DNA of 64,000 nt from an uncultured bacterium (GTDB taxonomy: Bacteria > Oederibacteriota > JAAXVQ01 > JAUVAV01): NCBI GenBank assembly GCA_965371665.1, contig CBDUZI010000001.1, forward strand, positions 9,411-73,410, given 5' to 3'. Shown piece by piece: positions 8,130-49,600 of the stretch. Positions within the stretch are counted from its first letter, which is position 1. Each line of letters opens with the position of its first letter. The position numbers and the translations under genes are program-made. A model generated the notes under the pieces. That model saw nothing but the letters and a program-made list of their open reading frames with translations. It searched no databases and had not been told where the DNA came from.

Positions 8130-9601
8130 TTTACTACCGCTACCCGAATATTCTTCTGGAATCGATTGCTTTCGAGCCTGATGATATAGACACCGCTGGC
8201 GACCCAGTCGCCGTTGGCATTCTTGCCATCCCACCGCACCTGGTCATCCACGGCTCCGGAAGCCGGGCCGTCGACTAAGGTACGTATTTTGCGGCCGGCT
8301 AAATTGTAAACCGTGATCCTCACCCGGCTGGCGTCTTCCGCACCGTAATGAATGGTTAATGACCCTTGCTTGGGCCGGAAGATGTTGGCAGAAGGCCGGA
8401 GTTCATTCACACCAACGATGGGCGTAGGGGTAGCGGTTGGCGGTTGGCTGGTTATCTCCAAGCAGTCGAATCCGAGCTTATCGCCATCGGCACTGCCGAT
8501 CCAGATAACAACGCGGAAAGTCTTTATCCCCGACCAACCGGTCGCAGAGGCATAATCGTAAACCAGAACCCCGGGCTGGGTAAGATTCGGAGACAAGGCG
8601 TGATAGTCTGTGCCATCATAAACATTGAGTAATTGGATTGTGGCCTGCGCGCTGCCTTCAGGCTCCACGGAATCCACCGTGGCAATGAAATACGGAAAGG
8701 CCGTTACATCCGTGGTAATAGGAGCGCTTTCCATCTTGTGCTCGCCCGTACCGGTAAAGGTCACCCAGCCGATGCCGGCTTGCGCATCCAGTTGCACGTT
8801 CGTCAACGTCCAATCGCTGGGAGGATCAAAATCCTCCACCCAGCCATTATTGACTCCAGTCGGTGTCGATGTTGGAGTATAAGATGTTGGAGTATAAGTA
8901 GCACTGTTTGTCGAAGTAGGTGTTATAGTTGGCGTATCTGTCATAGTCCAATCCGGAGTCTGAGTGGATGTGGGGCTCTTGGTTGGGCTGTCCGTAGGTG
9001 AACAGACCATAGTTTCCGTGGGAGTGGGTGATACTGTCGGCGTTGCGGTGGGGGTATAATCCACGTCATAAATGCGGACCGAATCAAAAGTAGCATAACA
9101 CCACTGCGGGCCGTACACTTTAAGCACAAAATAATAGAGCTGCGTTCCACTTTCTCCAGTAACCGAAGAAATATTATAGGAATAGGTGCCGGGTACGGTG
9201 GGAGTGCCAAACACAAAATATTCCCAGGTGGGCTTCTGCAGGGCTATTTCCACCTTGGTCGTACCCGCCTGGATGTCGCTGATGACGACCTCCATCCTGT
9301 TATATGTGCTTAAATCCACTGATTTAGTAATCGATGTGACATATCCGGCTCCGTCCATGCCGGTGACGGTAATATCTGCGTAACTGTCGCTCTGGCTATA
9401 AACCATCTCTGCCGGATTCGGCCCGCCGCCCCGGTCCGTGACATCGAACCAGCTTCCGGGCTTTTCTCCGGGCGTGCCGCCGGTAAAATCATCCATCCAG
9501 AGATTTGTTGCCTGGACCAAAGCAGCTGCACTCAGGCAAAGCCACCCGGCAGCCAGCCCTATCCGGCTGACCCGCAAAAAAGTACGTCCCCCTCTATGCA
9601 T
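8126..9601 (-). CDS. secreted protein: 2 shared modules, Pro/Thr-rich linker, C-terminal FlgD-Ig / T9SS-type sorting-like domain
   Basis: GGGGA lies 7 nt upstream of the ATG; signal peptide ..GLAAGWLCLSAAALVQA. Modules at about 9499-9061 and 8851-8446. PT linker at about 9070-8880 (TPTATPTVSPTPTE...TPTSYTPTSTPTG). The last 90 aa or so (8400-8129), RVRITVYNLAGRKIRTLVDG..VRWDGKNANGDWVASGVYIIRLESNRFQKNIRVAVVK, match the FlgD-Ig/Por-secretion-tail pattern. Confidence 0.8.
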   Translation of the reverse strand: MHRGGRTFLRVSRIGLAAGWLCLSAAALVQATNLWMDDFTGGTPGEKPGSWFDVTDRGGGPNPAEMVYSQSDSYADITVTGMDGAGYVTSITKSVDLSTYNRMEVVISDIQAGTTKVEIALQKPTWEYFVFGTPTVPGTYSYNISSVTGESGTQLYYFVLKVYGPQWCYATFDSVRIYDVDYTPTATPTVSPTPTETMVCSPTDSPTKSPTSTQTPDWTMTDTPTITPTSTNSATYTPTSYTPTSTPTGVNNGWVEDFDPPSDWTLTNVQLDAQAGIGWVTFTGTGEHKMESAPITTDVTAFPYFIATVDSVEPEGSAQATIQLLNVYDGTDYHALSPNLTQPGVLVYDYASATGWSGIKTFRVVIWIGSADGDKLGFDCLEITSQPPTATPTPIVGVNELRPSANIFRPKQGSLTIHYGAEDASRVRITVYNLAGRKIRTLVDGPASGAVDDQVRWDGKNANGDWVASGVYIIRLESNRFQKNIRVAVVK

Positions 9602-9611
9602 ACGCCATCCC

Positions 9612-28600: not shown

Positions 28601-31600
28601 AGGGCTGCCAGGGCAGCGGCTGCCAAGCTGCCAATGCTCGAGACCAGTTGGACGCCTTCTCTGGGCAGGACCTGCCGCCAATGTTCCAGATATTCCAAAA
28701 TTTCTTCGGTCGGCGGCAAGCCTCGCAGGAAATCAGCCGTATCCGCAAATCCGAAATACTGCGCGTAGAAATTTAAATCCTTCTGATCGGTTGGAGATAA
28801 TTCATCATACGTGTATTCGTTGATCGCCGGCAGGTCTAGCTCAGGCAGATGATTCGTCGAATAGAGATACACTCCAGCATAAGAATCAACCAGATCGTAC
28901 AATTGTCCATAAGTCTGAAGCTCGTTCACATTGCCGATGTCTTCGATCCGGTAGCCGGCTTTGGCTAATATCCGCCGGAAGTCTCCCTCGGAAAACTCGT
29001 AACAGAAATATCCTCCGCCCCGGTATTGGTGCAGTTCCTGATTAAGGACATTGACCCAATTTCTCCAGTCACGGGCATCCAGGGTCTGCTGTCCGAGAAA
29101 CTCAGGCAGGGTCTGGGTTCCCGGGAAGGGCTGGGTAAGCAGCTGATCACCATAGGAGGCGAGAAAGAAAGCTAACTGGTCAAAGCGTAAATTTAAAGTA
29201 TTGACGAAGTTCTCAAAATCCCGATAGCCCATATTCTGCGCGATTTGATTGTATTCTTCCAGGGTGTAATCGCGGCCCAAAACGTGGTTTAAAGCACCTG
29301 CCAGACGCCCGACATTATCCAAAGTGATGGTTTCCTTGCCTCCCTGCTCCACATAAACCCGCTGACCGTCCTCACCTCTAAGATTCAAGGCGTAGAGCAG
29401 GTTTTCAAACAGGGCGTTAGTCTTACCGGACAAGGGATGGTAATAACCTGTTTTCCCAAAGTGGAAGGGACTGTCTCCCAGGAACTGGCTGAGCTGCGGC
29501 GGATAAACTTGCTGGTTTTTATATGTGGCCAGGTCCCAGATATAGTTCCAACTGCGGCTGGTTACATGGATGCCGCTCCAGATCACAAAGGCCGCGAAAA
29601 CGCTTAATTTTGAGCTGCGTGATACCCGATACAGGAAATTATTGAATCTTTTGGTCTTGGCCAGCGCCACCATCAGTGATAGAAAAAACACCGTACCAAG
29701 CTGTAATCCCCAGGTGTTGTACCACATCCGGCTGAAGTTGGCGATAATCTGGAGTTGTTTGGGTACTTCTTGGCTACCGGACAAATCCCGCAAAAATTCA
29801 CGGATCAGCGCCTGTTGCAGAGCCCGGTCCTCTGCCTGTACCGGGTAATTTTGGAGAGCCCGGGCATCGGGGTTGACAGAATCCAGCAGGGTAGACCGGG
29901 TCGGCTTTTCCCATACCGTCATTCCGCCCCGCAGGAAATCCAGGCCTGGCAGGACGCCAATCTGCTTCCAACCCGTGGCCACCAGCAGCCGGTTATATCC
30001 CGCATTTCCACTGATGACACGGTCTAAGCCGTATTGCTCATTATTTATTAAAATATCAATCAAGGGTGTCATGGAATTCATGCCGCGCTCAAAACCCAGG
30101 GTCGCAGCATCGTATCTGACTTCTGAAGGCGTTCCTTTGAAGCGCTGGTTGTACTGAATGGTATCCGCCATACGGCCCAGGGAAACGCTTGGAATGCTTG
30201 TGATAATCGGGAACTCCGCTCCTACGACCAGATAGCGGGTGTTCACCGTTCCCAGGCCTCTTAAACTGTTCGTATCTAAAAGCATGTTCAGATCCGGATA
30301 TCCAGACGGATGCAGGGGAACGATCTCTTGGCCGAGTTGCAGTTCTCCTGGTCCTGGAAATGCCTCTGGCACTCCTTCGGCGCCAGCCTCGATTTTAATA
30401 ATCCGTCTTCTCATATCTTGAGTCTGGGCGCCGATCACCAGGTTTGGCGTCGACCCTGTCTCCTGCAGAGCTATGTTTGCCGGTATTTCACCTTCCCATT
30501 CATAAACCGCTTCCAATCTTTCGCTCAAGGTTTCACCTTGAGCGGTGATTCCTTCCAAGTCAGACGAAACAATAGTTTTGACTACAAATTCATAATACTC
30601 ATCGGTTTCTACATCTTTTAAAAGCAGTTTTCTGACCTCCGGGGTATCCAGGTTGTAAACCATCACTCCTGGGGCATAAGCCGGGGTAAGCCGAACCCAG
30701 GTCTCTGGCTCCCCAGCGCGGTTCGCCATATCCCGAGACACCTCGATAATGATGTTGGAGTTGGCGCTCGGCGTGCGGCTGTGTACTCGGGCAATCAAAA
30801 ATTTAGGCAATTCCCGCAAGCGAAGTCTCCGGCTGGCAAATCCATATTCCTCGATTTGAGTTGTTGTAATTAGTTCCCCACCCTCGACCCGGGTCGATGT
30901 AAACCAATCCTCGGGATTTATTGGAATATTAACTTTCGGGCGAGGTAGTTGTCCGGGTTTGATTTTTTCCATAACCAAGGCTGGAACCCGGATAATGTAA
31001 AAGTCAAACCAGGCTCGGGCAGACCGGTTTTCAGTCTCGCTGAACTGATCGACTACGCCTAATGAAACTTCGAAGGATTGGTTTCCAGATAAACCCCATT
31101 CCCGGAGCAGATCTGCCAGATTAATCCTCTCCTGGTTACTCTGGCTGTTGAATGCAGCATAAACGTATCCGTCTGGCAGGGACGGATGATGAATGGCGAC
31201 ATAGTACGTGCGGGTTATGTCACTGATCTCCATATTCAGCCAGACATTTTCGCTGTCCAGATCCACGCGGATAGGCTCGGGCATGCGCACGCTGGCCCGA
31301 TTGGCGCCGGAAGTATTCGCGCCGCGAACTAGCAGGCCTCCCTCTTCATTCCAGTCTACCCGCGCATCCTGGAGGTGTGCCTCCTGCAGCTTCACAGAGG
31401 TATAATAGTCATCGATTATCTTGTGCGGTTCAATATCGCTTTTGTCGGCGTAAACATGCATGACCCGGTCTGCGCCCGCGGGATCGGACAAAGCCGCAGT
31501 GTTCTCCTGCCCTATCTCTCCAAAGCCAGCAGCTTCGACTTCAGGCGATTGCGAAACTTGCCCGGCCTCGAACGAGCCGAATCCTCCGCTGATATCATGC

Positions 31601-34600
31601 TCCGTGAATACCGCGCGGCCGATTTGGCGTACGTAATCATCGCCAGCTTCAGCCGGAAAATTCCCGAGCATCAAGAAACAGTTCAAGTTGTATTCATGCA
31701 GCATATTTTTGATTCTTTCGATCTGCGGGCCGACCGGTTGGTGCATGTCTTGCACCTGGATGGAGATACCATCGACCTGCGCCAGGGTAAGAGGTCTAAA
31801 CAGGATATTATGGAAGGCATCTGCATAGTCGAGCTGAAGAATGAGCAGATGTTTGTCACCGTCGATTTCTTTGAGGAAAGGAATCATTCGGTCATACCAT
31901 TTAATCAAGTCTTGTCTGAGATTGATTCTCTGCCAGTCCGTCTCGGGGGTGTTTCTCAACAGGACATCGGGTCTGTCGGACAGACTATAAACAATATTAG
32001 GATAACTATGCAGCCTTTCCACTATCGTCCGGACGTAATTTTTATTCTCTTTATAACTTTTTGCTATTTCGTCTGGGTAAATCGTATGTAACAACGCTCG
32101 ATTGAGGCTTATAATATCTTCTTCTGCCAGGATCTTTTGGGAAGCTGCCGCTTCTTTCGCTTTTGTTAATAATTGCTCAACTGCTGGAGATAGTTTGAGC
32201 TTGTCAGCATCCACTTTGGTATATAAATCAGGCATTTTCAGGACGGCATTGAATGCTTCAACCGCCTGTTTTTCTGTAAGGGTTGGCAGTTCCTCGATAC
32301 CCATGTCAAGTTCTGCAAGCAAAATAATATCGGCTTTACTTTCCCCTTTTAGTATGTACTTTAATCCCTCGACATCTAAATCGCCTTCGCGAAACACCGA
32401 AGAGGACTCAATGTCTCCCCCAAAATCCTGGTAATTTTCAAACAAGCTGACCACAACCATGATGTTTGCATCCTGGGCTAGCTGTATAAAATTTTCTAAC
32501 TTGTCCAAGTAGCTGATGTTGACATTGGGGCCGCCGAATTCAGTGTAGGGAATCTGCATAATGACACTGTTGGCATTCTTATCTCGCAGGCCTTGCACGA
32601 GTTGGCCCAGGGATTCCGGTGTAGCATTTTCCCACCAGCCCGGCTGGGAAGTGTCTAGATTAAATCCCCAAAGCTTGACCACGTTGCCCTGGTCATCGGT
32701 AATTTGTCCGTAGCCCATGGCCGGAGCTCCGCGCACCTGGTAAGCACCTCGTCCGCCCATTTCGATGGTTTGCAAGGACGGCACTTCATAGTCGAAGATC
32801 GCCTGCAGCTGTCCGGTCCCGGTAACCTGCAACCAGTAGTTACCTTCACGATCCTCCACCTCCCTGTAGTCCACGCCCACGTATAGTCCCTGACGGTTAC
32901 TCGGCATGGAAAATTCACTTCGCCAGGAGCCGATGTCGATGCCTGCCTCAGGATAAACAAAACCTAATCGAGACCCCCAATCCATGCTATTACCCTTAGA
33001 GTCAAGCATGGCTTGGATTTCAGGCGGACACTGGTCCGGCCGCAACGTCTCAATGCCCCGAATGTGCGCACCCATGCCGGCTACAGGGGAAACACCTCCC
33101 GTAGGCAACGTTTTGCGCGAAGACTCCGGGTCCCTTTCTATTTGGAGCGGTGATTCCTGCCATTGGCCGGTTATACCCATATCAAAGCGTATGGCCCCTC
33201 CCATCTTTGCCAGTTTCTCCGGAGATAACACGATGTAATAAGTACTGGGAGCAGGGATATCCCAAGTAGCTAAGGGTTTGGGAACACCCAACATAGATTT
33301 CCTGGACATTGCTTGTCCGCGGGTTTCTATGCGCGATATGGCCAGCCTGTCCGCTTCCTCGGTCGCCAGTATTTTAGCCTCGGCTATTTTCTCCTCTGTT
33401 TCCGCACCCTGCATGAATCTTTCCAGGGCGGTTTCATAATCGGCTCGCCAGGCGCGCATTTCTACATCGTTCCCAAACTGTTCCTCACTAGGATCTAGTT
33501 TAAAATACAATTGCGCATTGGGGGAAAGTTGATCCACCTGGATGGCAATAATATTGTAGCCCTCTGGCAGAACCATCTTCCGGCTGACATAGCCCCGGCT
33601 ATGCCGCGGGCTGGTTCCGATCAGCGTCAAGCCCTCGGAGTCGGCGCTGAATTTTAAACCGTATGGCTCCCACTCCCAAACCCGCACTCCCTTTACAGAT
33701 ACGTCGTACCGGTCCCCGGCTAGGGGAACACTCAAGCGGCCGCTGTCCAGATTATCGGGTACGCCAGGATCATACGGCAGGATTTCGGGAGCCGGCCGCT
33801 CGGTGTAGTCTACATTCAAACCCTGCTGGTAGGCGCGCATGATATTCATGGCAATACTATTATCTAAAGTTTCATCCTCGCCTATTCGGTTCCGGAAAAA
33901 GAGAGTTTGCAGATAGCTAGCTGCCCGCAACCGATCCCAGCCTTCAATATTAGTCCACTCCGTGGCCAGATCCGGGTTCAGGCTGAGGAAGGGATCGAAT
34001 CCGGCAAGGAGCGCTTCATCGGATAACGCCGGGTTTTTCTTCCAAAAGTTGATTCCCATCCTTTCTTCGTGTCTAATAAGATCGGTAGATGCCAGGAAAT
34101 AATTCAGGGCAGACGCGGGAACAACGGAGAGATTCGGGAATCCGGGAATAGTTATCTTTCTCCAGCGCAAAGCTTCCCGGGTTTTTTCGGCGTGGGCATC
34201 CACCATGCCGAAAAAGTTTTCTATGGTAAGCTGATTAGGCTCATAGGCCACGAATAATTCCGAATGCTGGATCGGCAGAGGCCTATGTATGCCTTTTAAG
34301 GGCTGAAATCGATCGACCATCCATTCCAGACTACGGAGGAAGATGTTCGAGCCTTCTGTAGCAATATTTTCATATTCTCCGGACTCAAAACGCCCCAGCC
34401 CGACCTTCACGTCCGCCAGGGGACTCTGGCCGCCGGCCACAGGCTCAGGCCGAATAAAATGGGCTTCTGGTCCATACCACAATTGCCGGGCATGGATCAT
34501 ACCGTCCAAAACTACATGCGCATCCTCCAGCGAATTAATTCCGTACTCTTTCAGCCGGCCTTCATCGATCAATCGTTGCAAAACCAGCTCGAAATTTTCT

Positions 34601-37600
34601 TCGTAAATCACGCCTTGGGACCACATAGCCTCGACATCAAATATCAGCTCTAAAACGTCCTTCAGACCTTCAAAGCCGTAATCCCTGAGTATTCCGTTGT
34701 GATGGAGGTAGATCACCAGCAGTAAGTCTTTGGCTCGGCCGCGCGCCGCATAAAAGTTCTGCTGATTATCCAGCAAAGCACACGCCTCGTTAATGTCTAT
34801 ATCGTAGTTTTCCAGGACACCACCGGCTTCCAGGTCATTTAGTACCTCCTCGAAGGGCGTGTCCTGTAAAACGTCCCAAAGGACATCGATATTGTCGTTG
34901 ACAAATTCCATCTCATGGAAAGGCAAAAGCCTGACGTCTTGCCGTTCCAGCAAATAGGCCGGATGCCGCGTCCAGACATAGCGATAAAGAATCTCGGGAG
35001 TCCAGTACTTAGAGAAGAAATACTTGGGCCAAGGCAGCAGTGTCTCCCCGTTCATGCCTGAGTCTTCTCTTAAAAGCCGCTCGAACTCCGCATAGGTAAG
35101 CGGATCATAACCATTCTGTTCAACGAGATGATTCAATTCAAGCAAGATGGCCCGCATGGCCACCTTCTGGTCAGAGCGCTCCACACCCCTTCCGATATTC
35201 GTTCTTTTCAGTTCCGGCATGAACGTGGATTTCAATTCATGCTGCAGGCGGTCGCCAGGATAAAAATTGAAAATCTGCCAGAGGTACTGCGTGACTCTCG
35301 ATTCCAGTTCCCGGGCAGAATACCTGGCCAAAATATCGTTCCGGTACGGCTCCCAAAGGCCGTGAGCCTGCAGAAGTCTCATTTTCTCCTGGGGTGAAAT
35401 CGTACCGGCCTGAAACCGCCGCAGGGCGATGATGTCCCTGACGTCGAACCGGCCTTCCTTTTGCAGGGCGTTCAATTGCACGAGCAATCTGTCCGCTTCG
35501 TCGGGAAAAGCCCATTGCTCGGTTAGCAGGTTATCGAAACCGGCCGGGGAAAAACCCATGAGGCTTAAAAAATCTTCCAGTTCAATGCCATTTTTCGGAA
35601 GAGACCGCTCAACGGCTGGAATACCGCAAAAGTCGAAGACCCGCGATTGTTCGGTGAACCCGGTTACTGTCGGCCCGACCAGCGGATTGCCAGAAGCGCT
35701 AATGGCAAACTCAAATCCACCTGCTTCGGCCACCATGAATTCCCGGTATTCCTGTTCAAAATTATCCGGCCGAAAGACCGCTTCATCCGGAACAATGTAG
35801 TTCCAGTAATATCGTTCATCCCAGCCATCGGCTTCAAAGGCTGCCCAGCGAAGACGGGTTTTTCTCTCCAACTCGGCCACGATCCATTGCTCATCCTGGA
35901 TTACGTTCTGCACGTTTTTGGCATTCACCTGGGAAGGCTTGAGGAAGCGGGCAATTTCATTCTGGATTCTGAGGTACCAGTTATACCTGGCCAGTTCGGA
36001 AACATTTGGATTATTCGGATCATAGCCGTAATTAATATCCCGCACCGTTCGGATGAAAAAGGTAAAACTGATGCCCATGTCCTGGCAGAAAGCCCTGATG
36101 CTCTGGTAGTCGCTTAAGTCCAGATGCTCCATTTTCCACACTTCAGTCTGCTCCGATTCCAGCCGGACATCTTCCAACGTTCCGCAACTATCTTCCGGGC
36201 TGGGATGGGTAGTTAAGCTAATTCTTGTTTCCACGACATCCTCGATGGGTATTTCCGCCTTTTCAATTACCATCAGGAGGTCCACCTGGCTGTAGCCGTG
36301 GATAAACCACGGTCTGACTTTTACAGTAACCTCATCCTTGGTAGTGGTTTTTACCGTTAGGATGATGTCAAGGTAGCCTTGCCTGCCCATATAATTACCA
36401 GTAGAATTGTAGCGTAAAAACCGGGTGGCCTGGATTTGTTCTCCGGATACGATCCAGCTGATTCCTGCTGCGGGTTGGTCAGCCAGGGATTCAAAGGCGT
36501 AATGATTCTCGACGCCTTGCTGTGTGGCGGTGAACCGGGTCGGGTCGGTGGCATCCTGCGCCAGCATCACCACGTCGCCGGTGATCTCTGCCGTCGCGCT
36601 GGTTAAAGGCATAACCATGGTCGGAAAAGGCTCGGCCCGAACCTGGTTCGCTGACCGGTAAAGCACCTCTTTGGTGCTTTGAGAAAGTAGATGGGAATCG
36701 ATGTAAGCAGGAATTTCACCCTCTTGCTGCGTTACCGGAGTAAATATGGTTTTTAAAGCTCCGGGAAAACCGCCTGTCTGTCGCTCCTCAGCTTTACGGG
36801 CGGCGGCTTGTGGTTTGCCCACTTCGCTGGTGGTTGAGCCAGAAGATGCGAAATCCGTTGCAGGCTTTCTGGAATCCGGACCGGTATAATAGATCAGGTA
36901 ATCCAGACCCTGTTGCAGGCTGGGTATGCGCAGCGGTCCGATTCGCATTTCTGGCGTCAGCATGGCAAGTCCTTCCGAATATAAATAACCTGATAGGCGG
37001 GGGGATTGTCCTAGCCAGGTAAGTACACTAAGGATAACCGGCGTGAAAAACCACATCAGTCTCCACGCTGCCTTAGAGCGCCAGCTTGCTTCCTCAGGCA
37101 GCTTCTGATTTCGCGCCTTTTCTTTGCTCGCTCTCCAGAAATCCGGACGTTCTGGCAAGATAGCCCGCAGCTTCTGCTTGTCCCGGAAAATCCAGAACAA
37201 TCCAGCAATCATCGAAACAAGCACTCCCGCGCTGACCGCAAACAGAAGAGGAGCGATAAAGTTGCCCATAAGAAAAGCAATAATGCAGAAAACCAGGGTC
37301 AGGCTGAAAATAATTTTCCCAAAAACACGCGCAGTGGATTTGCCCATGACACCGGTTTTTTCTGCAGCCACTAAGCCGAGCGCTGCCAGAATACTGATCA
37401 TTAGTGCAGCCAGGATATCTAAAAATGCAAAATGGATTGCTCCGAAAAGGACAACCGTAAGGACGAATCCGAATAAGAAGAAATAGCTGAATTTAAACAG
37501 GCCCTTGGTAATATCCCCGGCCACCTTCCAGGTGGCCCAGTTCAAAGGCATCTGGCGTAAATGCTGCACATACTGCCTCAGATTCCTGATGGAGCCGCGG

Positions 37601-40600
37601 ATCTCTCCCACCAGTTTTTCCAGCACCAGCAACAGCAGGAACAAGGCGATGACGGGCACGATCAGCGACAAGTTGAAAATTATTGATAGGATGATCATTA
37701 CCACGGCAGCCATGGCGACGACTTTCCAGCGGCTGCGGAGAAGTTGCTTTAATCCGAAGTAATTGAAATATTTGAATAAGACTGCGAGAAGAATAATTGT
37801 CGGCACTGTATAGACTATACTCATGGGATCGGCAGATAAAACCGTTATCACATTCTGGTAGGTGGAGATAAAAGCGGTAATTATCCAGTCGATAATATTT
37901 AGAATAATTTCAACTATTGGAGCAGGAACATATGGGACCACAATATTTCTCCAGACCCATATGCTAATTGGGACCGGCAGCATGAGTACGATCGCCCGGA
38001 TGATGGCCACGAAGAGGTCCTTGGTTAGCAAGACCGGGATTTTAAGCCGTTCCGGCATCTTTTGGACAACTCGCTGGTTAAATACCCAGGATATTCCAGC
38101 TCCCACCAGAGTGGTTTCCAGCATCCGAAGCAAGGCTTCACTAAATGGAATAGCGGTAATGATGCCCAGGCCAGGGACCATGAACAAAACCGCAACCTGG
38201 TACATCAAGGTCGGAATCACGCCATAGGCCATCTGGGACAGGGATTTCAAGCTACTGTGGCGGAAAACCCGTTCGATTAAGACTTCCAGGATATAGGCGC
38301 TCAAGGGGGCCAGGATGATAATCAAATTAACGGTGAGGATGGTTTGCCAGACATTATACTCCACGCCGACTTTGGCTAGATTGGTGATATTTTGACCCAA
38401 AAAATCAGAAATACCCGTGAAGAAGGCGAATACCAAAACATTCGCAAAAAACATTCCACTTATAGGCATCTTGAACCGGATAAAGTAATCTGCACCGTAC
38501 TTCCCGGATACTACAATGGCGGCCTTGACGGGTATCAAGATTTGTTGCTTAACACATTGCCACAGAGGCTGGTAATACCTTTCCCAAAGCTCAATCAGCC
38601 GATCTTTGAGCTTTATCAAAATATCCTTCACCCGACGCAATATATCCAAAATCTTCTTCTTCACCCACTTAAGCCCGTCGCTAATTTTCGTAATTGCCGT
38701 TTTCACAAAGCGGATCATTCGCTGGACGAACTCGATTCGCAGGATCAGAAACAGGAGATTTTTGACGAACCTGATGGCAGCTTTGACGCGATTAACGATT
38801 TTGATGACGATATTATCTTTAATCCAGATAAGAAAATTCACAATAATGGGACGGATGATCCGGACAAAGGGACTGACGATCTCCTCGTAAATCCTTTTCG
38901 GCAGGGTAATTGGCAGGACGAGGGCCAGCTGTTTGACCACGTGTCCGATCTCGTGAACGGTTATACGTACAAAGCCATGGGGATCTAATCCGATATCGGC
39001 CAGGATCCGGCCGATGGGGTTGACCTTCCAGACCCACTGTGCCCATCTCTGGTACCAGGGCAGCTCTCTTTGCAAGGTCTCCGCAACTTGCAGCATCATG
39101 TTGCGCATGACCCGGCTCGGCGTGCCCTGTCTGGATTGGAGGGCGCGGTTGAGCAAGGCCGTCTCGGTCAGGGCGCGTTTGCCTGCCTCGGTCTCGAAAA
39201 AGGCATAATAGTTTTCGAATTCCTGGGCAATTTTTAAGATATTGGGCGGAATGAGGTCTTTAAGTTCGTTTCTGGAGGGTTCACTGACTGCCATTTCCAC
39301 CGGTACTTCAACCGCCTGCTTTAATCCCAGGTACCGACCAAGCACACCTAAGACTATCAAGAGTCCCAGGCCCATGATGCTTCCAGCGAGGATGGCTGCT
39401 CCACCCATGAGCATGGTAACCATCCCGCCAGCCAGCAGAGCCAAGCCAGTAATACCCGCAATAATCATCCGCGTACTTACACGAATGGGGGTATCCACCT
39501 GGCCCTCCCCAGGCGCCATGGTTTCCGGTGGAGAGGTTTCCCTGGGCGGAACCTTATCCTGCGCGAATGGATACAGGGCCTCCAGGAAATCCCCCATCAT
39601 GGCCTCACGTGCCTGGTCAGAGGTAATGGCGTCGATAAACTTCAGCAGATCCGTAGTATATTTATTAGCCTGCATGGCTTCGGAATCCGATTCCACCACG
39701 TCCGTGCCCAAAAAGGTGATTCTTCCACCGAGCTCCTGATTAATCTTGATGGCTATTTTTTTGATTTCCAATTTTCCCCGCGACGTTTGGGCCAATTCCC
39801 GGATTTCATCGGCGATTTTGACCAAATCAATCGTGGTGCCTTTTTCGAGATAGAAACGCCGCTTGAAAAGCTGGAATAGTTGTTCCGCCGTGATCTCGAC
39901 CGCTTTGCCCGCGAAAAACGTCCGGTTTAAATGCCAGGCAAACAACTTCATGCCGTTCATGCGCATTTTAGCGACATCTTCCCTCATGATGGCTTCATAA
40001 CCGCCCAGAAAGAAGAAGCGTAGGCCTTCGGCCAAATGCACACGGTAAATATCCGGGATCGAGCGCAAAGCCATGGGCGGAGCTCCTGCGAAATTGGCCA
40101 GCGGTCCCGGCCGTCCGGTTCCGAAAGTATGGGACATTATGTGGATGGGACCCTGCCCCTCGATGACTCCCTGGTATTTGGCCAGATCCTCCTCCTCGAC
40201 CCAGCCGGTATGAAGTATCGAGCCGTACAACAGTCCCATGATGTATTTGGCATAGGCTTCACCCGCATATTTATCCCCGGCAAACATAGGACTCGGGTGA
40301 TCACCACCGGTAAAATGAATTTTCGGAATCACGCCAGGCAAGGCTTCTTCCACCGCCCGCTTCAGTTCTGCTTCCAGTTCATTCAAGCGCTCCTCTGCAG
40401 TCAGCCGGGCTTCCACCTCAGGACGTAGCTGAGCACGAAGTTCTCCCCGTTTTCTTTCGATTATGCGCACCATGGCGGGGTAATAAATGTCGGTAAATTT
40501 GTAGCTTCCCAGCTTGCCAAAGGTGAAAAATATCCATTTCTCTATTGGCACCCGCGTAAAGTCCACCGGTGGAGTGACCTCGGCCATGTCCAGCAGGTGG

Positions 40601-43600
40601 TGAGTAACCGCGCCGGTCCGGCCTTGGAAATTAAACCAGGGATTATAATCGGCGATTGCCCGGGCGTATTCCGGCTGAAGGAAAATGAGTTTGTTCAGGT
40701 AAAGGTAAATCAACTGGGAGAGTCCCCAGGTGCCTAATTCCTCTTTGGTCCCGGCCTTCACCTGGGTGGCCTGCAAATCCACTCTTTCAATCACGTGGTG
40801 ATAAGGCGCGCCGATATGGGGGGTTCCGATCACCAAGGAATTGAACAGGCGGGAAACATGTCCCACCACGGCGCCCATCGGACTCTTATCGCCTTGACTG
40901 GTGAAGAGCATGTTAATCATTTCCGCATCCGAACCGGGTTTCCAACTCTCGGTCAGGTTCCGGGCAAAATTGTAAAGCCCTCCCATCTCATCCCAGGTCT
41001 GGATTAAGCTGACATTATCATGTTCCAAGGCGGCTGAAGTGACTACGCCGAATTCATTTCGGCATTCAGGACATAGACTATGCAGGCGAATCACTCCAGG
41101 ATAACGCCAATGTCCGTAGTTCACCAGCAAGCGCAGCTCCACATCCGGCCCCGCCGCATTGGCCAGTGGGATAATGGTATTTTGCATGTATTCGGACACG
41201 CCTCCGCTCTTTCCCAGTCTGCCCATTTCCCCACCAACATCTATCAACTGCCCGTCCGGATTATCTTCGAGTCTCATCCCAGGAATAACCTTTGCCTCAT
41301 CATCCACAAAACTGGAAAGGGTAGCCACAACCCCGGTACCCAGTTTGGAGGCTAATCCGGATTTCACTTCAGCCTCGGATGTCATAAGGCCTTTAACCGT
41401 ACCGACCATATCCGACAATTCAAACCCATTCGCATCGATTCGCCCCAGTTCGGCTACCGAGTTACAAACTGTTTGCAAATAAGTTAGACACTTTAAGGCA
41501 TAAGTCCGATTAGTGTGATCGGTTAAATTACTGATGTATCCTTGGCTGGCCAATTCATAATATAATCCTTGCACGCGCTGGTCGGTAAAAGCGATGGGCA
41601 CGCCGGCTTCAACATGCGCTTTGAGGGCTTGATAAATCACTTCAATATCATCTCCCAGTTGCTGCATCTGAGAACGCATATTCTTAGCCACATAAGTATC
41701 CCTAACCCTTAACCGCTCAGCAACCAAGGTAATGTCATGTTGAGCTTCGGGTATTCTCTCTGAAACGCGCAACAAATAAATCAAGTCCTCCATGCTTTCC
41801 GGGTCAGAGAGATTTAGGTTCTGCAGAAGCTCCCACACGGCCTGAAGTTTCTGAATTTTCTCAGGGGTAAAGGTCTGCCCGTCCCGAACTTTTTTAAAGA
41901 TTTCATGCAATTTGGCGATTTCCGACGGCTGCATCCATTTTTCCAGCAAAATGTCATCGCGGCCACGGGATTTAATCTGATCAACCAGAGCCCTTAAGCC
42001 TTCGTCTTCCTCACGGTAACCCGGCCCCATGGCATCCAAAGGAAGCCTGCTGGCCTGTCTTCTCTCCCGGCTGATGTCCTGGCGCACCTCCTCGGCCACC
42101 AGATCCGCGCGTATGTCACCCTTCCACTGCTGGATTTCATATAGAATTTTTAACAATTCGATCTGGCTCGGATCCTGCCGCAAGGTTTGCAGGGCAGCCA
42201 GTTTTTGCCCTATCCGATCGGGAAGAATCCTGCCCTGGACGATCAAATTGTCGGATAAGCCGGCCGCCTCGGAAGCCAAACCGTACTCTGGCATATGGAT
42301 TAAAATCTGATCAATGCTTCTTACTGCGCGGGGCAGGTCATTACGCTGATATATCCCAATGCCCGGACCCATAGTGGTGCTGACAGTCAGGACAATTTTT
42401 TCTCCGGGTTTCTTTCCCAAGCGCCTCCGGACTTGGGTAATGGCCTCTCTGAGTTCTTCTTCCGTGATCTCTTGGTTTAAGATGGCCTGGTCCTGGATCA
42501 TCGTGTCTATATCATGCCACATCACATTAAGCTCGTGCGCCATCTGCCCCATAGTACCGTAGAAGCGGTGCCGGCCCTGGCGATGGATTTGTTCGTCCTC
42601 TGCCCGGAATTCGTGCTGGTCGCCAATTTTGGCTCTCTGCCCTAAATAATCGAGATCACCTTGATCGCGGGCCAGGACAGTTTCCTGATAAGCGACGGTA
42701 GCAAGGATAAGGGCCAAACCGACAGCGGCAACTAACATTAAAGTTGGCGCAATAATGCTGAAGACGACTATAGCCGGCAACATAACCAGCGCGCAGGCAA
42801 CGGTAGTTCCGCTCTTACCCGGTATGCGAGCCGTTAAATAAAACCCGACTAGAGCAATAAAAAAAACCGCAAGAACGACCATCAAAGCCGGGGTAGCAGT
42901 CATGGCTGCCAGGGCAATGCCGGCCAAACCCATCACACCCAAGGCAACGCCGAATACGAAAAATGTTTTTCCCAGGAAGCCTAAATTCCCGAAGCTTCTG
43001 GCAGCCTGATAATGCTCGACGGCTACACTGCTCCTGCGGCTTTTTTCAATCATGTTTTCATACTTACGCAGGTTGTAATTAAACTCAGAGTAAAAATACT
43101 GCTCCCGCAGCATTTCGATGGTACGGCTCGCCTCTTCAGCGCACAGACGGGCCTGTTCTACCGCCTCGGGAGGCTGCCGACCGGCCGCAATCGCGACTTC
43201 AGCTTGTTCCATGGCCTGTTGCGCCTCCGCTTCCTGCTGTTTCGCAATCACTATTTGTTCCTGTAAAAAATCATTATAACTTTGGGCATCGTAACCCAAA
43301 ACCGGTTGATCATTGGCGTTGGTGATCAGATGTTCCATAAAATCAGCCTGAGTCAAAATGTTGGTTTTATTTCTTTGAGTAGGCTGTAAATCAAAAAGAA
43401 TCGTCCGTATCTTAGTGAAAAAACCATAGTCCGGACTGGATTTAAGCTCTGCCTGGTAATAATCCGTTATGTGTACATTGCCCTCGGCATCGATCATGAC
43501 TCCTGAAAAATCTTCGGTCCCATGATAATTCAAGCCGTGGATATCGAAGACATTTATTGCGGTCTGGAACTTTTTGGCCAGGCCTATTATCCGGTTAAAA

Positions 43601-46600
43601 TATGCTTTTTTCAGCCGGTCATGCTCAACATAGACCTCTCCCAGCCGATCATAGGCTGTCCGAATCTGTTGGCCTAATTCAAACAGATGCTGCTCCAGGG
43701 ATATCGATGGATTCAAGGATGCTGCCTGCATGGTTGTTACTAATGCCCGTGCCTCAAGGTCGACTACGTCCCGGGCCTGGGTTATAAGGCCGGGTAATTC
43801 CCGCCGGCGCTGCAGATTATCCTTTGTTTGTACGTTTTCTTGCCGTAAAGCTTCCAGTTCTTGAATCAGCCGATCCTGCTTGTGTCGTGCATGTTGCAAC
43901 TGCTGATACTGATGGTTAAGGGAATCTTTACACTCAAGCAGTCCGTCTTTTTGCGCCTCCAGTTCTGCAATCTTTTGTTTTACCGTCTGAAGTTCTCCGA
44001 GGTCTGGAGCTAAATAATCTTCTGCGCTCATACCAAAGGGTTCTTTCATGATCAGGAATCCAACATCTGATACCTTAACGTCTTGGGAACTTCGCGCAGG
44101 GAAGATGCGGCCGGTGGGAATACGCGCCTTGGCGCTCCCGGCGTAATATTTCAACTGAGCCAGGCCGGGCGTGCGGGAGCGTGTGAAATAGCGCTGCAGT
44201 TTTCTGGCAAGTCTGGAACTCAGCGGGCGGGCGCTGACGACGATGCGGTCGATGCTGCCGGTATGTGCATCCACGCCCAGAGCATAATTTTCATGGATTT
44301 CCGTAATGTAATAAGTCCGGGTTTTTCCGTCGTCGCCGGTCATCACGAAGGGAGTGTCATGCGCCAGGCAGGCGTTTAAAAGCTCCCTTCCGCTGGAGAC
44401 TTCAGGAAATCCGCTTTCAGGCGAGGCCTTGACCTGGACGACTTGCTCAATGACAGGAGCCAGTTTTCGTTGAAGGATTTGTAAAGAAGTTATGGTTTCC
44501 AACTCGAGATTTGCTAAGTGCTGTTGATATACGGGATTTTCGGCCATGCTGGCCAGCAAACGTTCCAGCACGGCGCCTTCGTAACCAGCCGATCGCACCC
44601 AGCTGAGTTCTGCGAATTGAATATCCAACAAGATTTTACTCAAAACGGATAAACGCGTCTCGGTGCTTAACATTTTGCAAATCATGTCGAGTTTATATTG
44701 CTGTTCGCTATCCCTGGGGCTGGGACTGGATAAAAGCTCAGCGAGCTTTGCTTGCCGGTTTTCGGTATTATCCTCTTTAATGCCTTTAATATATTCAACC
44801 ATCTCTTGGTACGCCTGCTGCCTGGCTTGAGTTTGGCTGTCCTTGGCTCCTGTCATTTGGCGGGTTTTCTCCTTAATGGCCTTGCGCTCGCCATTTTTGA
44901 AAATATAGAAAAGCAGCGAACCTGCTTTGATTAAAACCAGGATTCCGGCCAGGGCAATGACTACACCGGCTATGATGGCTAAAGGCAGGGAAAAGACTTG
45001 CAACAGCATTACCAGGGAAACGGCCAGGCCGGCCGTGGTCCCGATCAGGATCGATTTCATCGGCAGCGAGAGCTTGGTCAGAGGATAAAAAGAATTGAAT
45101 TCAAAGGTGGCATTCTTCCAGATGCCAGGATGTTTTTGATTTGCATAGGTGAGAAACGCGTCATTATCAATAATCCCGGCTTTATCGAAACCGGATAAGC
45201 CGTGGATTAAAAATTCACTTAAACTCTGCAGCTTGAGAGGGTGGTTACTAATATGAATTCTTCCCACCAGAGTACGGGTATCCTCCACTGCCTGATCATA
45301 AAACCGGTTAATTCGTGCCGATAACTCAGCCTGGACCTCGGCAGGAGTTTTTCCCTCAGCCTTCCAGGTTTCAATTTCGGCAAAATAGAGTTCGCTCACA
45401 TGATAGGGGTTGAAACCGAGCATAAGCGGACAAGTTTGGCCTCGATTTTCTTTTTGCCATTCGGTTCTTAAGCTTTTCACCTTATCGATTACGGCTGTCA
45501 GCCGTTGTTCCCCCCGGCTAGCAAGAATATGGCCGGTGGCATCATCGCGCAAATTGTACTTCCAGGCTTCTTCCTTCGCTATCACCATTTCAATAACCAG
45601 GTTGATATGATTTCGTGCTGCCAAAGTCACTAAATTCATTTCCGCCGACCTGCGATCGAGAAGATTATGTTTTGCCATATATAAGCCGATGTATTTTTCC
45701 CACTCATAGGGATGAAAAACAACATCCACCGGTTCAGGATGTCTCTCCTCCAGGATCGGCGCTATATCAGCCGTTTTATCTCCAAAGGCCACATGATAGG
45801 CGGCTACCTTCAGTCTTAAGCATTTAGCCGCTTTAATCTGTTCGCGGGTGGTATAAAGTTCATACTTTTTGCTGCCCATAAATAATGTTATATAAACCGA
45901 ATAAGCAATCATGGTGAGCAGGATTATGAGATTGGACAGCCAGCGTATTTTCATGATTTTCGAAATCCCAGGTATAAATTCGGGCAAATTTATTATCGTC
46001 GAAGCTATGGCGGCATTTCGAACAAATTTCTCGGGTGTGTACATCCGGTCTTCAGGCTTTTTCTCGACCGAGATTTCGGCCTCGACACTGCGCGTTTCGC
46101 GAATTTCCGCGCCTGCCTCGGGATATTTTAATTCATCGAAAAATGCCAGCACCTCTTGGGAAAATCCCTCTACGTTCTGGGGACGGTATAATCTGGCTTT
46201 TATTTCTGGGCTGTCCAGGGATATATAGCCGAGTTTTTCAGCAGGATAATCCGCAGCCTGAATCTCAGTCCGAATTTCCAGGGCCTCGACATCTTCGCCC
46301 AAACGAATCTCGAAATTGTGACCAGCGGCTTGCAATTGATCCTGGAGGGCATAAATATAATGCATCTCTTCGCGAGGCGCCATTTCTTCGGAAAGCATAA
46401 TCGCTACCACGGGTACAACGGCTATACGTTTACGCCCGGCTTCGGCTATTATTTCCTTAATTTCCCGAACCAGGGTCGCGATCTGCTCTTCCCGATTGGC
46501 TTCCGTCTGGGATGAAGGCAGCAATATCTCTGCCTCGGGATTAAAGGCGCCGGTCGCTTTCGTGAGCCTTACCCCCCCCATACCGAAGCCTTGAGAAGAT

Positions 46601-49600
46601 AGGCGCACGGCCGGCAGGATGACTTCATCGCCGCTTAAAGCGGCAAGGTCTTGGGGAGAAATCAAACCTGCGCTGGCGCCTAATTTTTGGGGATCCAAAT
46701 GAGAAGCCAGAACTATACCAGCAGCATAGCCTTTATCGGCAAGCCATTGATTTGCTTTGGCGATAATGAGTTCACCGTTGGGTTGACTTAAAGCTTCACT
46801 ATTAATCATAAATCTTTTGGTCCCGGACCATTGGCTGATATCCGACCGGGTTTCTTTGTCTCCTTGCAAGGCAAAATAGATTTTTATTCCATAAAGCAGG
46901 ATCGGTGGCACCAGTATAGCCAGTAAGGGATTTATCACTGAAATGCTCAGGATACCTAAGCCGCTTAAAGTTTCGGCCAGGTTAGCAACCGCATCTAAAC
47001 CTAAAAAGCGAGTGTACACCCAGAAGCCCAGCCCCATTCCGGCAATGATTAATCCGCCCCCCGCGGCTTTGCCTGCCATTCCAATTTTACCCTCTAATTT
47101 AAAAAGGCGGAGTATTTCGGCGAGTTTTTTCGCTCGCACGCCAAACAATTCAATAAATAGAATGGCGCCGAGCCACCACAACAAGTGCACCAGTTCAAAT
47201 CCCATGATCGTCTCTATCAAGCCAGACCAAAATACGACGTAGGCTGCAAAGGCACTACTGCCTAAAAAGCTTGCTATTCCCAGAAATTTATTCCTGGTTA
47301 TTCCATATACAATAAAATAACCCATAACCAATGCAGTCAATGCAACAGCACTTCCCAACATGATTTGAGTTCCAAAGAAAAGCAATCCCAACCCAAGGGC
47401 AATGGCTCCCAGGGATGCTAGAACCTTGTTCTCCAGGGCGCTCCGGATTTTCGAGGATTTAAAGGCAGGCGTATCCTTGCCTTGCAAGAGGGAAATGACG
47501 GTCTGTCCCAGATTTTTACCTAGAGCGTCGATTTGTTCCGAACGCAATGGGGTTGAGCTCTTCTGGATAATTAGTTCCAAAAGTTTATTTAAAGGCGTAT
47601 TTTTTCGGCCTGGATTTATGCCTTTGGCCGTGCCTAACGTCAAAGTGCTGCCTTCGGAAAATTCGGCGGGTTGATAGGGATTCGGACATAGATTCAAATT
47701 CCCTTGCCCAGCCTGACCTGTCAAAACAAAATGTTTCTCGACTAACTGCTTTATGGCTCCGTAGTCAGAATGACGCAAGACGGTTTCCAGAAGGCCATTT
47801 TTAAGTTTACTTATAACTTCATCTGGTTCCTGTCTCGGCCAAAGATAAGCCGCAGCACCTATGGCGAAAAGCAGAGCCCGGGGGGACTTCGCTGCAGCCA
47901 GCGAAACTCGCAAAGCTTGAAGTCTTTTCTCTTGGTCTGCGTCTAAAGTTTGGGCACCAGCCAGATCAATAATCTCCTGGTCCAGCCTATGTATCTCTTC
48001 ACGCTCTTTTTCCTCTGCCTGGGAACCCAATGTTTCTGCCAAAGTCTGAAGCATATGTTGGTTTTTTGCTTGAATACTCTGAGTATCGCGTTGTACCGGT
48101 TTAGCTTTTTCAGTTTTTTTAGCCGTCATGAGTACGTTTAAATTCGCTTCGAATATTTCCGGCTTGCTTCTGTCCAGTTTTAAGGCCACGTTTAAAAGGT
48201 TTTCCGCTTCCTCGCCCTTGAATCCAGCAGCTTGGATTTTCTGACGCAACTGCTCTTCAAACTTATCAATCTTTACCTCTTTTGGCTTTTCATCTTCATA
48301 CAGCTCTTCCTGCTTCTTCAATTCTTTTTCGGCCCAGGCCTTGGCCTTTTCCTCGCTGAGAACCGGGCCGATCAGGGTTTTATATTCCTCGCGAAGATCC
48401 GGATAATCCTTGCTAAGAATCATGCCGGCAAAAATTTCCAGGAAGCTGAACCATTTCCAGCGATTCGGCTTATCGAAGAGTGTGCCCGGGTATTGGGTGA
48501 CATCATGACCCGTGACATGGAAGAGTCTTTGCTTAATCGCGGCCAATAAAAATTCTCCCGGCTCCCGTCCGCCCACTCTGGTCTCGGCCTCGGATTCAAT
48601 CCAGGGAATATCCTTGCCCATGACCTTATGACCCGACATCAGAGCCAGGGTAATGAGTTCGGTTTCGAATTCCATCTTGACGCTGCTGGCAAGTTCAAGC
48701 GCTTTCTTGACAACCTCCGGCCGAAAAGCCTTAAATCCGGCCTGCGTATCCGGCACTCCTCCCAGCGGGACAATCGCCCGGACCATGAGATTAAATCCCA
48801 GGCTCAGGATATGCCGCGCAAGCGGCTTGGCAAAAACCACGGATTCCGGGCCTACGCGCGACCCGTAAACCAGTCCGACATCCGCATTCTCAGGATTGGT
48901 CAGCGGTTCTGTGAGCTTGCCAAAAAGCCCGGCATTGGTGGAAACATCGGCATCTATATAGCCGGCTATATCCACCTCGTCTTCTTCCACCATTATTTTA
49001 TAGGCCTCGTACAAGGCTCCGCCTTTTTTTTCCTGCCTGGCGAATTTCAAGCCTTTGCGGTCGAAATAATACTCGACCCTGATCTGGTCTGCCCGGTGTT
49101 CAAAATCGCTTTCGATCACATTCTGCGCCAGCCGGGCTGAAGCGTCATCGTCTGTGGTAAAAAGAATCCTGGGGCCTAAATGTCCGGCCTTTTTATCAGG
49201 ATCACTTGAATAAGCTACTCCCTCTTCTACAATAGTAATCGTCATCACATCCAGCTTTTCCACACCCTCTTTTTCAGCCTTATCCAGCTTTTCTTTAGCC
49301 TCTTCGGCGTCTTTCTTGGCATCTTCCACCTTTTTTTCAAGGTTTGGGTCCTGCTTAGGAACTAACAGGTTAAGCTTTTTTAATATAGCCGGCAGACTGA
49401 ATATCAACCCGCCCAAGCCGGCCAGCCCGATACCTGTCCAGGAACCCAATATCAAGGCCGCTGGAAAGAAAAAAGTCATGACCACTCCGGCGATGATTAG
49501 AAGAATGCCGATAATCCCGGCAGCAAGCACAGTGTTTTCATCCCAGGCATTCAAGGCTTTACGCTTTTTGCTCAAGTCTTCGTGGTTTTTACGCGCCTCT

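Follow-up and report, generated by a model that had tools for sequence, protein, structure and literature searches.

The question raised by this locus is whether a single polypeptide of an uncultured bacterium carries glycosyltransferase (GT) modules beside glycoside hydrolase (GH)-like ones and, if so, what those GTs might do. The DNA analysed is a stretch of 64,000 nucleotides (the window) from contig CBDUZI010000001.1 of assembly GCA_965371665.1, and an earlier note on its sequence had placed a GT2 domain and, more weakly, a GT-B domain between positions 39840 and 49250. That interval holds no separate genes; it is a slice of one open reading frame (ORF) on the minus strand. The ORF is free of stop codons over 25663..63852, which gives 12,729 amino acids (aa) from the first in-frame start at 63852, and its frame remains open to the right edge of the window, so the protein has at least 12,778 aa and its true N terminus lies outside the window. 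Residues are numbered with aa 1 at 63850-63852 (minus strand). The motifs on which the two calls were based are all on the minus strand in the frame of this giant ORF (IDADVS at 48940-48957, PDTQAGFKAFRPE at 48715-48753, KSGGV at 41197-41211, and LLVNYGHW at 41107-41130), and the two blocks correspond to aa 4868-5105 (GT2) and aa 7531-8005 (GT-B). The analysis described here confirms a GT2 domain, finds that it is split in two by an inserted membrane hairpin, and finds no positive evidence for GT-B.

A GT2 domain below the reach of Pfam

When the giant chain was scanned in chunks of 4,200-4,430 aa, Pfam recognised only GH5, SecY, the SecA DEAD and P-loop domains and, weakly, the SecA wing/scaffold; all of these lie upstream of the 39840-49250 interval, and aa 4200-12729 received no Pfam assignment of any kind. 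The isolated GT2 block had no Pfam match at E ≤ 10 and no sequence match in the PDB (phmmer). PF00535 did not match the GT2 segment of the giant even at E ≤ 10, whether the segment was isolated, spliced, or left within long chunks, and it did not match the GT2 segment of an ortholog from another metagenome-assembled genome (MAG; described below). Homology was revealed by intermediates. A word-indexed search of 5.8e9 proteins returned five relatives (P0001-P0005), with 28-31% identity for the nearest and E values down to 7e-17. P0001 (E 7e-17) and P0002 (E 2e-16), both ~30% identical to the giant, score above the PF00535 cutoff. In P0005, a strong GT2 domain (PF00535, 90 bits, E 1.6e-25) is fused to a PMT_2 GT-C domain and YkcB_C. 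A profile of the giant and its ortholog aligned in hhalign with the stand-alone family at 98.6% (E 1.4e-15) and with the GT2 domain of P0005 at 97% (E 1e-10). A five-sequence profile found a single match in the PDB, the Pyrococcus enzyme DPMS (5MLZ; E 2e-6), over the region of the DxD, GSR, and acceptor-loop motifs; the same search with a profile of only the giant and its ortholog was empty, so the bridging homologs were required. Collectively, these sequence comparisons confirm that the GT2 call reflects true homology and not chance, seen only by methods more sensitive than Pfam. The Pfam check proposed in the earlier note therefore fails on the giant's own sequence and succeeds on three of its relatives (P0001, P0002, and P0005), and the absence of GT-family HMM hits, which the note had offered as grounds for refutation, would wrongly reject this domain.

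The catalytic motifs are found in the C-terminal half of the domain and comprise KKGG (aa 4942-4945), the DxD element DAD (aa 4967-4969; window 48946-48954), GSRVG (aa 4997-5001), the acceptor loop DTQAGFK (aa 5035-5041; window 48730-48750), and WIESE. These motifs do not vary among the giant, the ortholog, and the stand-alone GT2s. Both DAD and D5035 are invariant in the giant, the ortholog, and the five GT2 relatives, and the giant and P0001-P0005 have in common the family-specific sequences Y.E.NRI, GEDFL, DADxST, and DTQCGFKAF. KKGG, DAD, SRVG, and DTQxG[FL]K are identical in the giant and its ortholog, compared to an overall C-half identity of 45%; this argues for a functional enzyme and a real gene, not an assembly artefact. 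A DxD motif combined with an acceptor-loop aspartate points to an inverting, metal-dependent GT-A enzyme, and the retention of both suggests such a mechanism for the giant. The GT2 domain has the single Rossmann-like α/β/α fold of the GT-A class, and DPMS has the highest identity (22%) among its structural matches.

A membrane hairpin splits the GT-A fold

The region 48540-49250 does contain the GT2 signature series reported for it but amounts to no more than the C-terminal two thirds of the domain; the β1-α1-β2 unit with which the domain begins lies further upstream (Table 1) and had been missed. This N-half contains β1 (LLLGVAISFYRE), the GEDFL helix, and β2 (VLLMDGT) at the VDDG position. 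Pairwise BLASTP of the giant against P0001 gave two collinear matches, one pairing aa ~4585-4675 with residues 64-141 (E 1e-7) and the other pairing aa 4897-5106 with residues 128-346. In a multiple alignment, the Y.E.NRI, GEDFL, and β2 VDDG positions of the family align with aa 4601-4673 of the giant, and hhalign matched the N-half to residues 75-140 of the stand-alone family at 96.4% (E 1.2e-9). As judged from these alignments, the GT-A domain is split after the β2 DDG loop by an insertion of ~225 residues. The insert begins with a short α/β element, followed by a helical stalk rich in lysine and glutamate (K/E-rich), a transmembrane (TM) hairpin, a return stalk, and conserved TITIVE..ILFTTD strands. 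It is 32-40% identical in the ortholog, which has the same order of N-half, hairpin-bearing insert, and C-half, and it is absent (gapped) in every stand-alone relative. The hairpin itself is formed by two helices with a turn of at most ~10 residues, a Kyte-Doolittle peak of 2.73, and flanking lysine plus arginine counts of 4 and 3. The segment at 49530-49390, listed in the earlier note as a TM cluster flanking the GT2 block, is actually this hairpin, inside the GT-A domain. No description of a hairpin-split GT-A architecture was found in the literature.

An AlphaFold2 (AF2) model of aa 4590-5125 contains long helices at model residues 132-206, 208-237, and 249-273. In Foldseek, the long helical hairpin of the insert (model residues 132-273), which has a hydrophobic tip, weakly matched the tripartite α-pore-forming toxins AhlB and SmhB (E ~0.2-0.6), a result that is probably due to generic helical-hairpin geometry. 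The strands after the insert (TITIVE..ILFTTDDD) were also considered as the real β1/β2, which would make the arrangement a partial duplication; this assignment was rejected with an hhalign value of 0.6%, against 96.4% for the N-half.

Alternatively, the GT2 domain might be a dead relic retained as a structural or sugar-nucleotide-binding scaffold. Its divergence is extreme, falling under all Pfam and NCBIfam thresholds; the 225-aa insert breaks the fold; the second aspartate of the canonical VDDG is replaced in the giant (LLMDGT); and the chain already has one degenerate enzyme module, its second GH5-like copy (GH5b). Nevertheless, KKGG, DAD, SR, DxQxGF, and W.ES.E are all kept in the giant and its ortholog despite 45% identity, and the ortholog has FLDDG at the β2 position. 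A catalytically inactive domain is therefore considered improbable.

Predicted location of the two halves

Membrane topology was derived from hydropathy peaks and a TopPred-style enumeration of positive-inside bias (K+R), using the ATP-dependent SecA motor as the cytoplasmic anchor. The SecY part comprises 10 + 2 helices, along which the K/R pattern alternates perfectly. Four strong TM helices (aa 3745-3763, 3768-3786, 3818-3836, and 4209-4227) separate the SecA module from the GT2 domain and set the parity for the side on which the latter lies. The best model uses all six helices, i.e., these four and the in-domain hairpin (bias 18), with the X1 domain outside and both GT2 halves inside. The runner-up (bias 15) would put the halves of one GT2 fold on opposite sides of the membrane. 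Hydrophobicity and the positive-inside rule thus suggest that both halves are cytoplasmic. The GT-B candidate block was also placed inside (bias 24, versus 12 for the next model). The two best models for the N-terminal GH5 module give opposite sides (scores 9 and 8). The earlier picture of synthesis inside and hydrolases on the other side is thus supported in its first part, by the model that places GT2 inside, and is not supported for the hydrolase modules.

A possible role in lipid-linked sugar synthesis

On balance, and with moderate confidence, we interpret aa ~4601-5110 as a catalytically competent, cytoplasmic split GT2, most likely a polyprenyl-phosphate hexosyltransferase. In the proposed mechanism, the insert would leave the domain as a K/E-rich stalk, span the membrane twice as a tight hairpin, and come back, allowing the two halves to reassemble on one side. 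A hexose would then be moved from a cytoplasmic nucleoside diphosphate (NDP)-sugar onto membrane-embedded polyprenyl phosphate, and the inserted hairpin would serve as membrane anchor in place of the C-terminal TM anchor of DPMS, GtrB, and ArnC. The polyprenyl-phosphate type is favoured because DPMS was the sole PDB sequence match, because a D-x-Q-C-G-F-K loop is common to the giant family and P0005, in which the GT2 is fused to a GT-C, and because the best (weak) NCBIfam resemblances of the relatives are to AglJ, dolichyl-phosphate hexose transferase, ArnC, and PpgS. Lipid-linked sugar donation, one of the routes suggested in the earlier note, fits these closest relatives (DPMS, ArnC, the weak AglJ-type matches, and the GT2-GT-C fusion) and is rated as possible, as is any downstream use of the product.

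The same comparisons bear on an alternative in which the GT2 domain is active with a non-lipid acceptor, either a soluble one, as for the mannosylglycerate and glucosyl-3-phosphoglycerate synthases, or a segment of a cytoplasmic protein, and in which the hairpin is a mere tether. DPMS is not only the sole sequence match in the PDB but also the structural match of highest identity, the D-x-Q-x-GFK loop is held in common with P0005 and its polyprenyl-phosphate-sugar-using GT-C, and the NCBIfam resemblances of the relatives are to lipid-phosphate transferases. MGS, MPGS, and GpgS belong to other GT families (CAZy). A non-lipid acceptor is accordingly regarded as unlikely, though it is the alternative to which we give the most weight.

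Several observations weigh against a polyprenyl-phosphate hexosyltransferase. P0001-P0004 contain no TM segment, so the ancestral GT2 enzyme may have been soluble. In the AF2 model the hairpin sits at the end of the long K/E-rich helices, and these stalks, if rigid, would hold the active site off the membrane. Searches for a GT-C or flippase that could consume a lipid-linked sugar, a supporting more than a strictly defining feature of such enzymes, were negative both in the chain (Pfam, and PDB searches with profiles of the TM clusters at aa 8280-8900 and aa 5470-5975) and in the neighbouring genes (Pfam). The giant's own GT2 sequence has no direct Pfam or NCBIfam match. The topology enumeration is home-made and not a trained predictor, and its limits are illustrated by the X domain, a TM-flanked sequence of ~300 aa that is duplicated in the chain and has no Pfam or PDB relatives: the method puts the homologous X1 and X2 on opposite sides, which is either a real oddity or a limit of the method.

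A broader version of the polyprenyl-phosphate hexosyltransferase proposal can be imagined, in which acquisition of the hairpin made a soluble ALG5-like GT2 a lipid-carrier GT built into the chain. Together with the SecY-SecA modules, this would make the giant self-contained: it would first export its extracytoplasmic GH5 and binding modules and afterwards glycosylate them, or the surrounding surface layer, by way of a lipid-linked sugar. This is speculative and rather doubtful. If true, a single polypeptide would couple secretion to glycosylation in a new manner, and no earlier GT-A fold would have been shown to accommodate an internal TM hairpin.

The giant ORF is supported by a collinear ortholog

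An HMMER scan of 1.84e9 representatives, with the GT-B candidate block as query, gave two proteins, P0007 (4,296 aa) and P0008 (3,448 aa), that are collinear with aa 4261-7770 and 7768-11154 of the giant, respectively, at 35-57% identity. This collinearity indicates that the giant ORF is a real coding sequence. P0007, the source of the ortholog GT2 described above, fills the whole 12.9-kb contig JAFGIQ010000242.1 of GCA_016929575.1, a MAG assigned to 'candidate division FCPU426', and the ABC permease encoded next to the giant has its closest relatives (76-79% identity) in the same MAG. No further orthologs were found in GTDB genomes or JGI metagenomes. The giant diverges much faster than its neighbours (35-57% versus 78% identity), and synteny is not kept in all relatives.

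These data also bear on whether the ORF is an artefact of assembly or annotation whose modules do not belong to one polypeptide. The DNA is of metagenomic origin, the N terminus of the giant is off the window, and a related contig (L001) is broken into many short genes. Against this, 38 kb are without a stop codon in a single frame, the same neighbouring genes are seen on several independent assemblies, and the ortholog in another MAG is collinear over ~6,900 aa, with one open frame filling its 12.9-kb contig. An artefact is thus extremely unlikely. It is possible that the giant chain, once made, is cut post-translationally into pieces.

Two observations concern the orthologous loci themselves. 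Residues 1-595 of P0007 are not collinear with the window protein, which has its X1 domain and a TM helix at that point; this difference over ~600 upstream residues suggests that the giants of related species exchange modules. In this part of P0007, a G-x-G-T-R-like loop (MPGKGTRMSPFTQ) was considered as a sugar-1-phosphate nucleotidyltransferase motif and set aside for want of Pfam or PDB support. In related FCPU426 MAGs (L009-L012), the genes directly upstream of the 76-79% identical permease are of ordinary size and do not encode the C terminus of the giant.

No positive evidence for a GT-B module

The second call of the earlier note was a GT-B N-lobe resembling glycogen synthase or phosphorylase at 39840-41260. 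The motifs quoted for it are present, and the block is conserved, with 67% identity to the FCPU426 ortholog and 46% to P0006, its only relative in the search of 5.8e9 proteins; it has no relatives in GTDB genomes. HMMER over the 1.84e9 representatives returned only orthologous giant fragments and no GT-B, Pfam gave no match at E ≤ 10 (including Glyco_transf_5 and Glycos_transf_1), and a three-sequence profile found nothing in the PDB at E ≤ 10. In hhalign, the block scored 0.6% with E. coli GlgA and 0.1% with a profile of 12 GlgA sequences, both sides being shallow profiles; the GlgA homologs collected for the GT5 profile were all at least 71% identical, and the E. coli GlgA query was validated against 2QZS (1,098 bits). 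For the GT2 comparisons, hhalign values were 96-99%. An AF2 model from a two-sequence alignment had a pLDDT of 32 and was unusable; its secondary structure was mostly helical but is unreliable.

A real but very divergent GT-B, of the GT5 or glycogen-synthase-like type, might still occupy aa 7520-8025. Pairs of motifs can be matched by eye in an order-preserving series with GlgA (KSGGV/KTGGL, IFLQPEYARAI/ITAVSPTYAREI, FGKLGSYKF/VSRLTSQKG, and HFTGGDHP/LLGAGDP), the block is conserved and predicted to be cytoplasmic, and GT5 is reported as the commonest GT on the Archaeovorins, the giant proteins of Omnitrophota discussed below. The motif series was rejected as evidence after the negative hhalign result, and the lysine of KSGG is not conserved, the sequence being GKSGGV in the giant, GKSGGL in the ortholog, and GAGGGV in P0006, where glycine takes its place. 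Compared to GT5 E. coli GlgA (2QZS), the only likeness is a glycine-rich K-S-G-G-V loop after a hydrophobic strand and a few ordered look-alike motifs; the candidate has no recognisable E-x7-E or EPCGL-type C-lobe motif and no statistical similarity. With no match to any Pfam or PDB entry, an exhaustive HMMER search that found only pieces of orthologous giants, near-zero hhalign values, and a mostly helical (if unreliable) prediction, a GT-B identity is very improbable. The block is better described as a conserved near-orphan domain that is probably cytoplasmic. No GT-family HMM matched it, which is the finding that the earlier note had itself named as refuting, and the 'uptake and re-polymerisation' route built on the glycogen-synthase call falls with it.

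Other modules and gene neighbourhood

The claim that GT and GH-like domains reside together in one chain stands: in addition to GT2, the giant has a GH5 module recognised by Pfam (E 6e-6) and a degenerate GH5 copy, both outside the 39840-49250 interval to which the claim was originally applied. The first module has GVTNEID and LIFEEMG at the catalytic-glutamate positions. In the second, TNEID and FEEMG are replaced by LSDRPD and LGNFP, as is also the case in the ortholog; this copy carries a ~120-aa insert, has no Pfam match, and is probably a non-catalytic binding module. The SecY-like 10-TM channel (aa 2062-2373) matches Pfam at E 5.4e-40 over 304 of the 306 model positions, and the SecA-like motor that follows is represented by SecA_DEAD (aa 2475-2715, E 9e-16) and P-loop_SecA (aa 3022-3241, E 4e-6). 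This natural SecY-SecA fusion inside the giant may be of more interest than the GT finding. An engineered SecY-SecA fusion is reported to be functional (PMC5562318).

The hydropathy scan identified ~58-60 TM-like hydrophobic segments, in clusters, along the giant. Internal BLAST found a second GH5-like module, four β-sandwich-like modules, and the duplicated TM-flanked X domain, and no second copy of the GT2 domain or the GT-B candidate among the internal repeats. A further module of ~150 aa (AHEQYAHRWAQ..AEKGNK with three or four TM helices) occurs twice, the copies being 59% identical; one stands at the very start of the ORF in the window, so the unseen N-terminal part may hold more of these repeats. 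Motifs of the HExxH type (HEIGH, HEDAH, and HEQYAH; Table 1) adjoin TM clusters and have no Pfam hits. HEIGH is kept in the ortholog P0008 as LHEIGHVV, and these motifs could mark metalloprotease sites embedded in the giant and acting in its processing. A coiled-coil-rich stretch lies between two TM clusters at window ~42970-44890 (aa 6320-6960); within it, a segment of the VMIDAEGNVHITDYYQAE type is kept in the ortholog and, by eye, resembles a kinase/phosphotransferase catalytic loop.

The genes downstream of the giant encode two ABC sugar permeases, a solute-binding protein, an OmpA-like protein, a 1,738-aa DUF6259/NPCBM_assoc protein, a 1,204-aa SlpA-like protein, and a protein with a Por_Secre_tail/FlgD_ig C terminus, over DNA that ranges from 38% to 55% in GC content. 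A polysaccharide-processing surface apparatus accounts for this gene context, with its large surface-protein-like genes, no less well than predation does.

Table 1. Positions of the giant ORF, its modules, and adjoining genes in the window
Feature	Window positions	Residues (aa)	Strand	Basis
Giant ORF	25663..64000		minus	ORF reading; collinear ortholog fragments P0007/P0008
Repeat of ~150 aa, two copies	63550-64000 and 60436-60910	-49 to 101 and ~983-1139	minus	59% identity
GH5 cellulase-like module	62632..63345	170-407	minus	Pfam PF00150, E 6.2e-6, 26.3 bits (cutoff 23.5)
SecY-like channel, two extra TM helices, and SecA-like motor	54130..57669 (to 57843 as region)	~2004-3241	minus	Pfam
Four TM helices and ~370-aa X1 loop, from SecA to GT2	51172..52620		minus	Hydropathy; topology enumeration
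X domain (~300 aa, TM-flanked), two copies	51187-52092 and 45001-45912	3921-4222 and 5981-6284	minus	Internal repeat
GT2 N-half	49834..50052	4601-4673	minus	BLASTP to P0001; hhalign; kept in ortholog
Insertion within GT-A domain (~225 aa)	49153..49833	4674-4900	minus	Gapped in all stand-alone relatives
TM hairpin	49378..49533	4774-4825	minus	Hydropathy; topology model; 40% identical in ortholog
GT2 C-half (catalytic core)	48523..49152	4901-5110	minus	Homology; invariant motifs
GT-B candidate	39778..41295	7520-8025	minus	Conserved domain, no Pfam or PDB match; predicted cytoplasmic
Second, degenerate GH5-like module	31513..32766	10363-10780	minus	Internal BLAST to aa 126-244, E 3.6e-10
HExxH-type motifs HEIGH, HEDAH, and HEQYAH	38941-38955, 28174-28188, and 60901-60918	8300-8304, 11889-11893, and 979-984	minus	Motif
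Downstream genes, all on the strand of the giant	261-25338		minus	Pfam

Significance and comparison with known systems

Few products of uncultured bacteria are as poorly understood as the giant multi-pass proteins that string enzymes together, and the greater part of these chains lacks annotation. The GT2 domain described here illustrates that bridging homologs and structure prediction can yield a confident assignment for a module that Pfam does not see, and that the two parts of a GT-A catalytic domain can be encoded on either side of a membrane hairpin, which is useful for domain-boundary prediction and protein engineering. If the GT2 makes a lipid-linked sugar, it would offer a testable handle on the decoration of giants or on their modification of the cell surface. 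A false lead is also removed, since nothing in these data points to a re-polymerisation module of the glycogen-synthase-like kind.

In solved polyprenyl-phosphate GT2 enzymes, the TM helices follow the catalytic domain. Compared to these enzymes and their relatives (DPMS 5MLZ, ArnC 8VXH, GtrB 9NYE, and ALG5/AglJ), the giant differs in that its hairpin, on long K/E-rich stalks, lies inside the fold, after β2; identity is only ~22%, and all NCBIfam equivalog cutoffs are missed by far. The stand-alone relatives P0001-P0004 (~410 aa, of metagenomic origin) are small and uninterrupted, without TM segments or an internal hairpin. In P0005, the membrane part is the C-terminal GT-C domain, again with no internal hairpin insert.

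The closest parallel to the giant as a whole is the class of Omnitrophota proteins termed Archaeovorins, which have many TM helices, a divergent SecA DEAD domain, and GT and GH modules on one chain (West-Roberts et al. 2023, bioRxiv 10.1101/2023.11.21.568195); a 2026 survey of Omnitrophota lists hundreds of such giant proteins (10.64898/2026.06.07.730766). The giant resembles them in that one ORF encodes more than 10,000 aa with dozens of TM helices and a divergent SecA DEAD motor (here E 9e-16), in combining GT and GH modules in one polypeptide with domains too divergent for routine annotation, and in having carbohydrate-import genes adjoining it. The co-residence that the earlier note called unusual is thus, in the form of GT, GH, and SecA in one giant, a defining trait of a known class.

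As judged from the neighbouring gene and the ortholog, the giant belongs to the FCPU426/Goldbacteria lineage and not to Omnitrophota. The architecture therefore extends beyond Omnitrophota to a cellulolytic lineage, the characterised FCPU426/Goldbacteria member being a cellulose degrader (PMC7031533). The GT2 of the giant is DPMS-like, whereas GT5 and GT1 are reported for Archaeovorins. Their SecA domains are found on the giants but SecYEG is encoded separately (bioRxiv 10.1101/2023.11.21.568195); here, one chain carries both, with a complete SecY channel ahead of the SecA motor. In further contrast to Archaeovorins, Pfam found no HEAT, TPR, dockerin, methyltransferase, or NUDIX domains in the giant, and there are no type II secretion genes within 25 kb downstream of it. 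The features that set this protein apart are thus its FCPU426 lineage, a DPMS-like GT2, a GT-A domain split by a membrane hairpin, and a SecY channel fused upstream of SecA.

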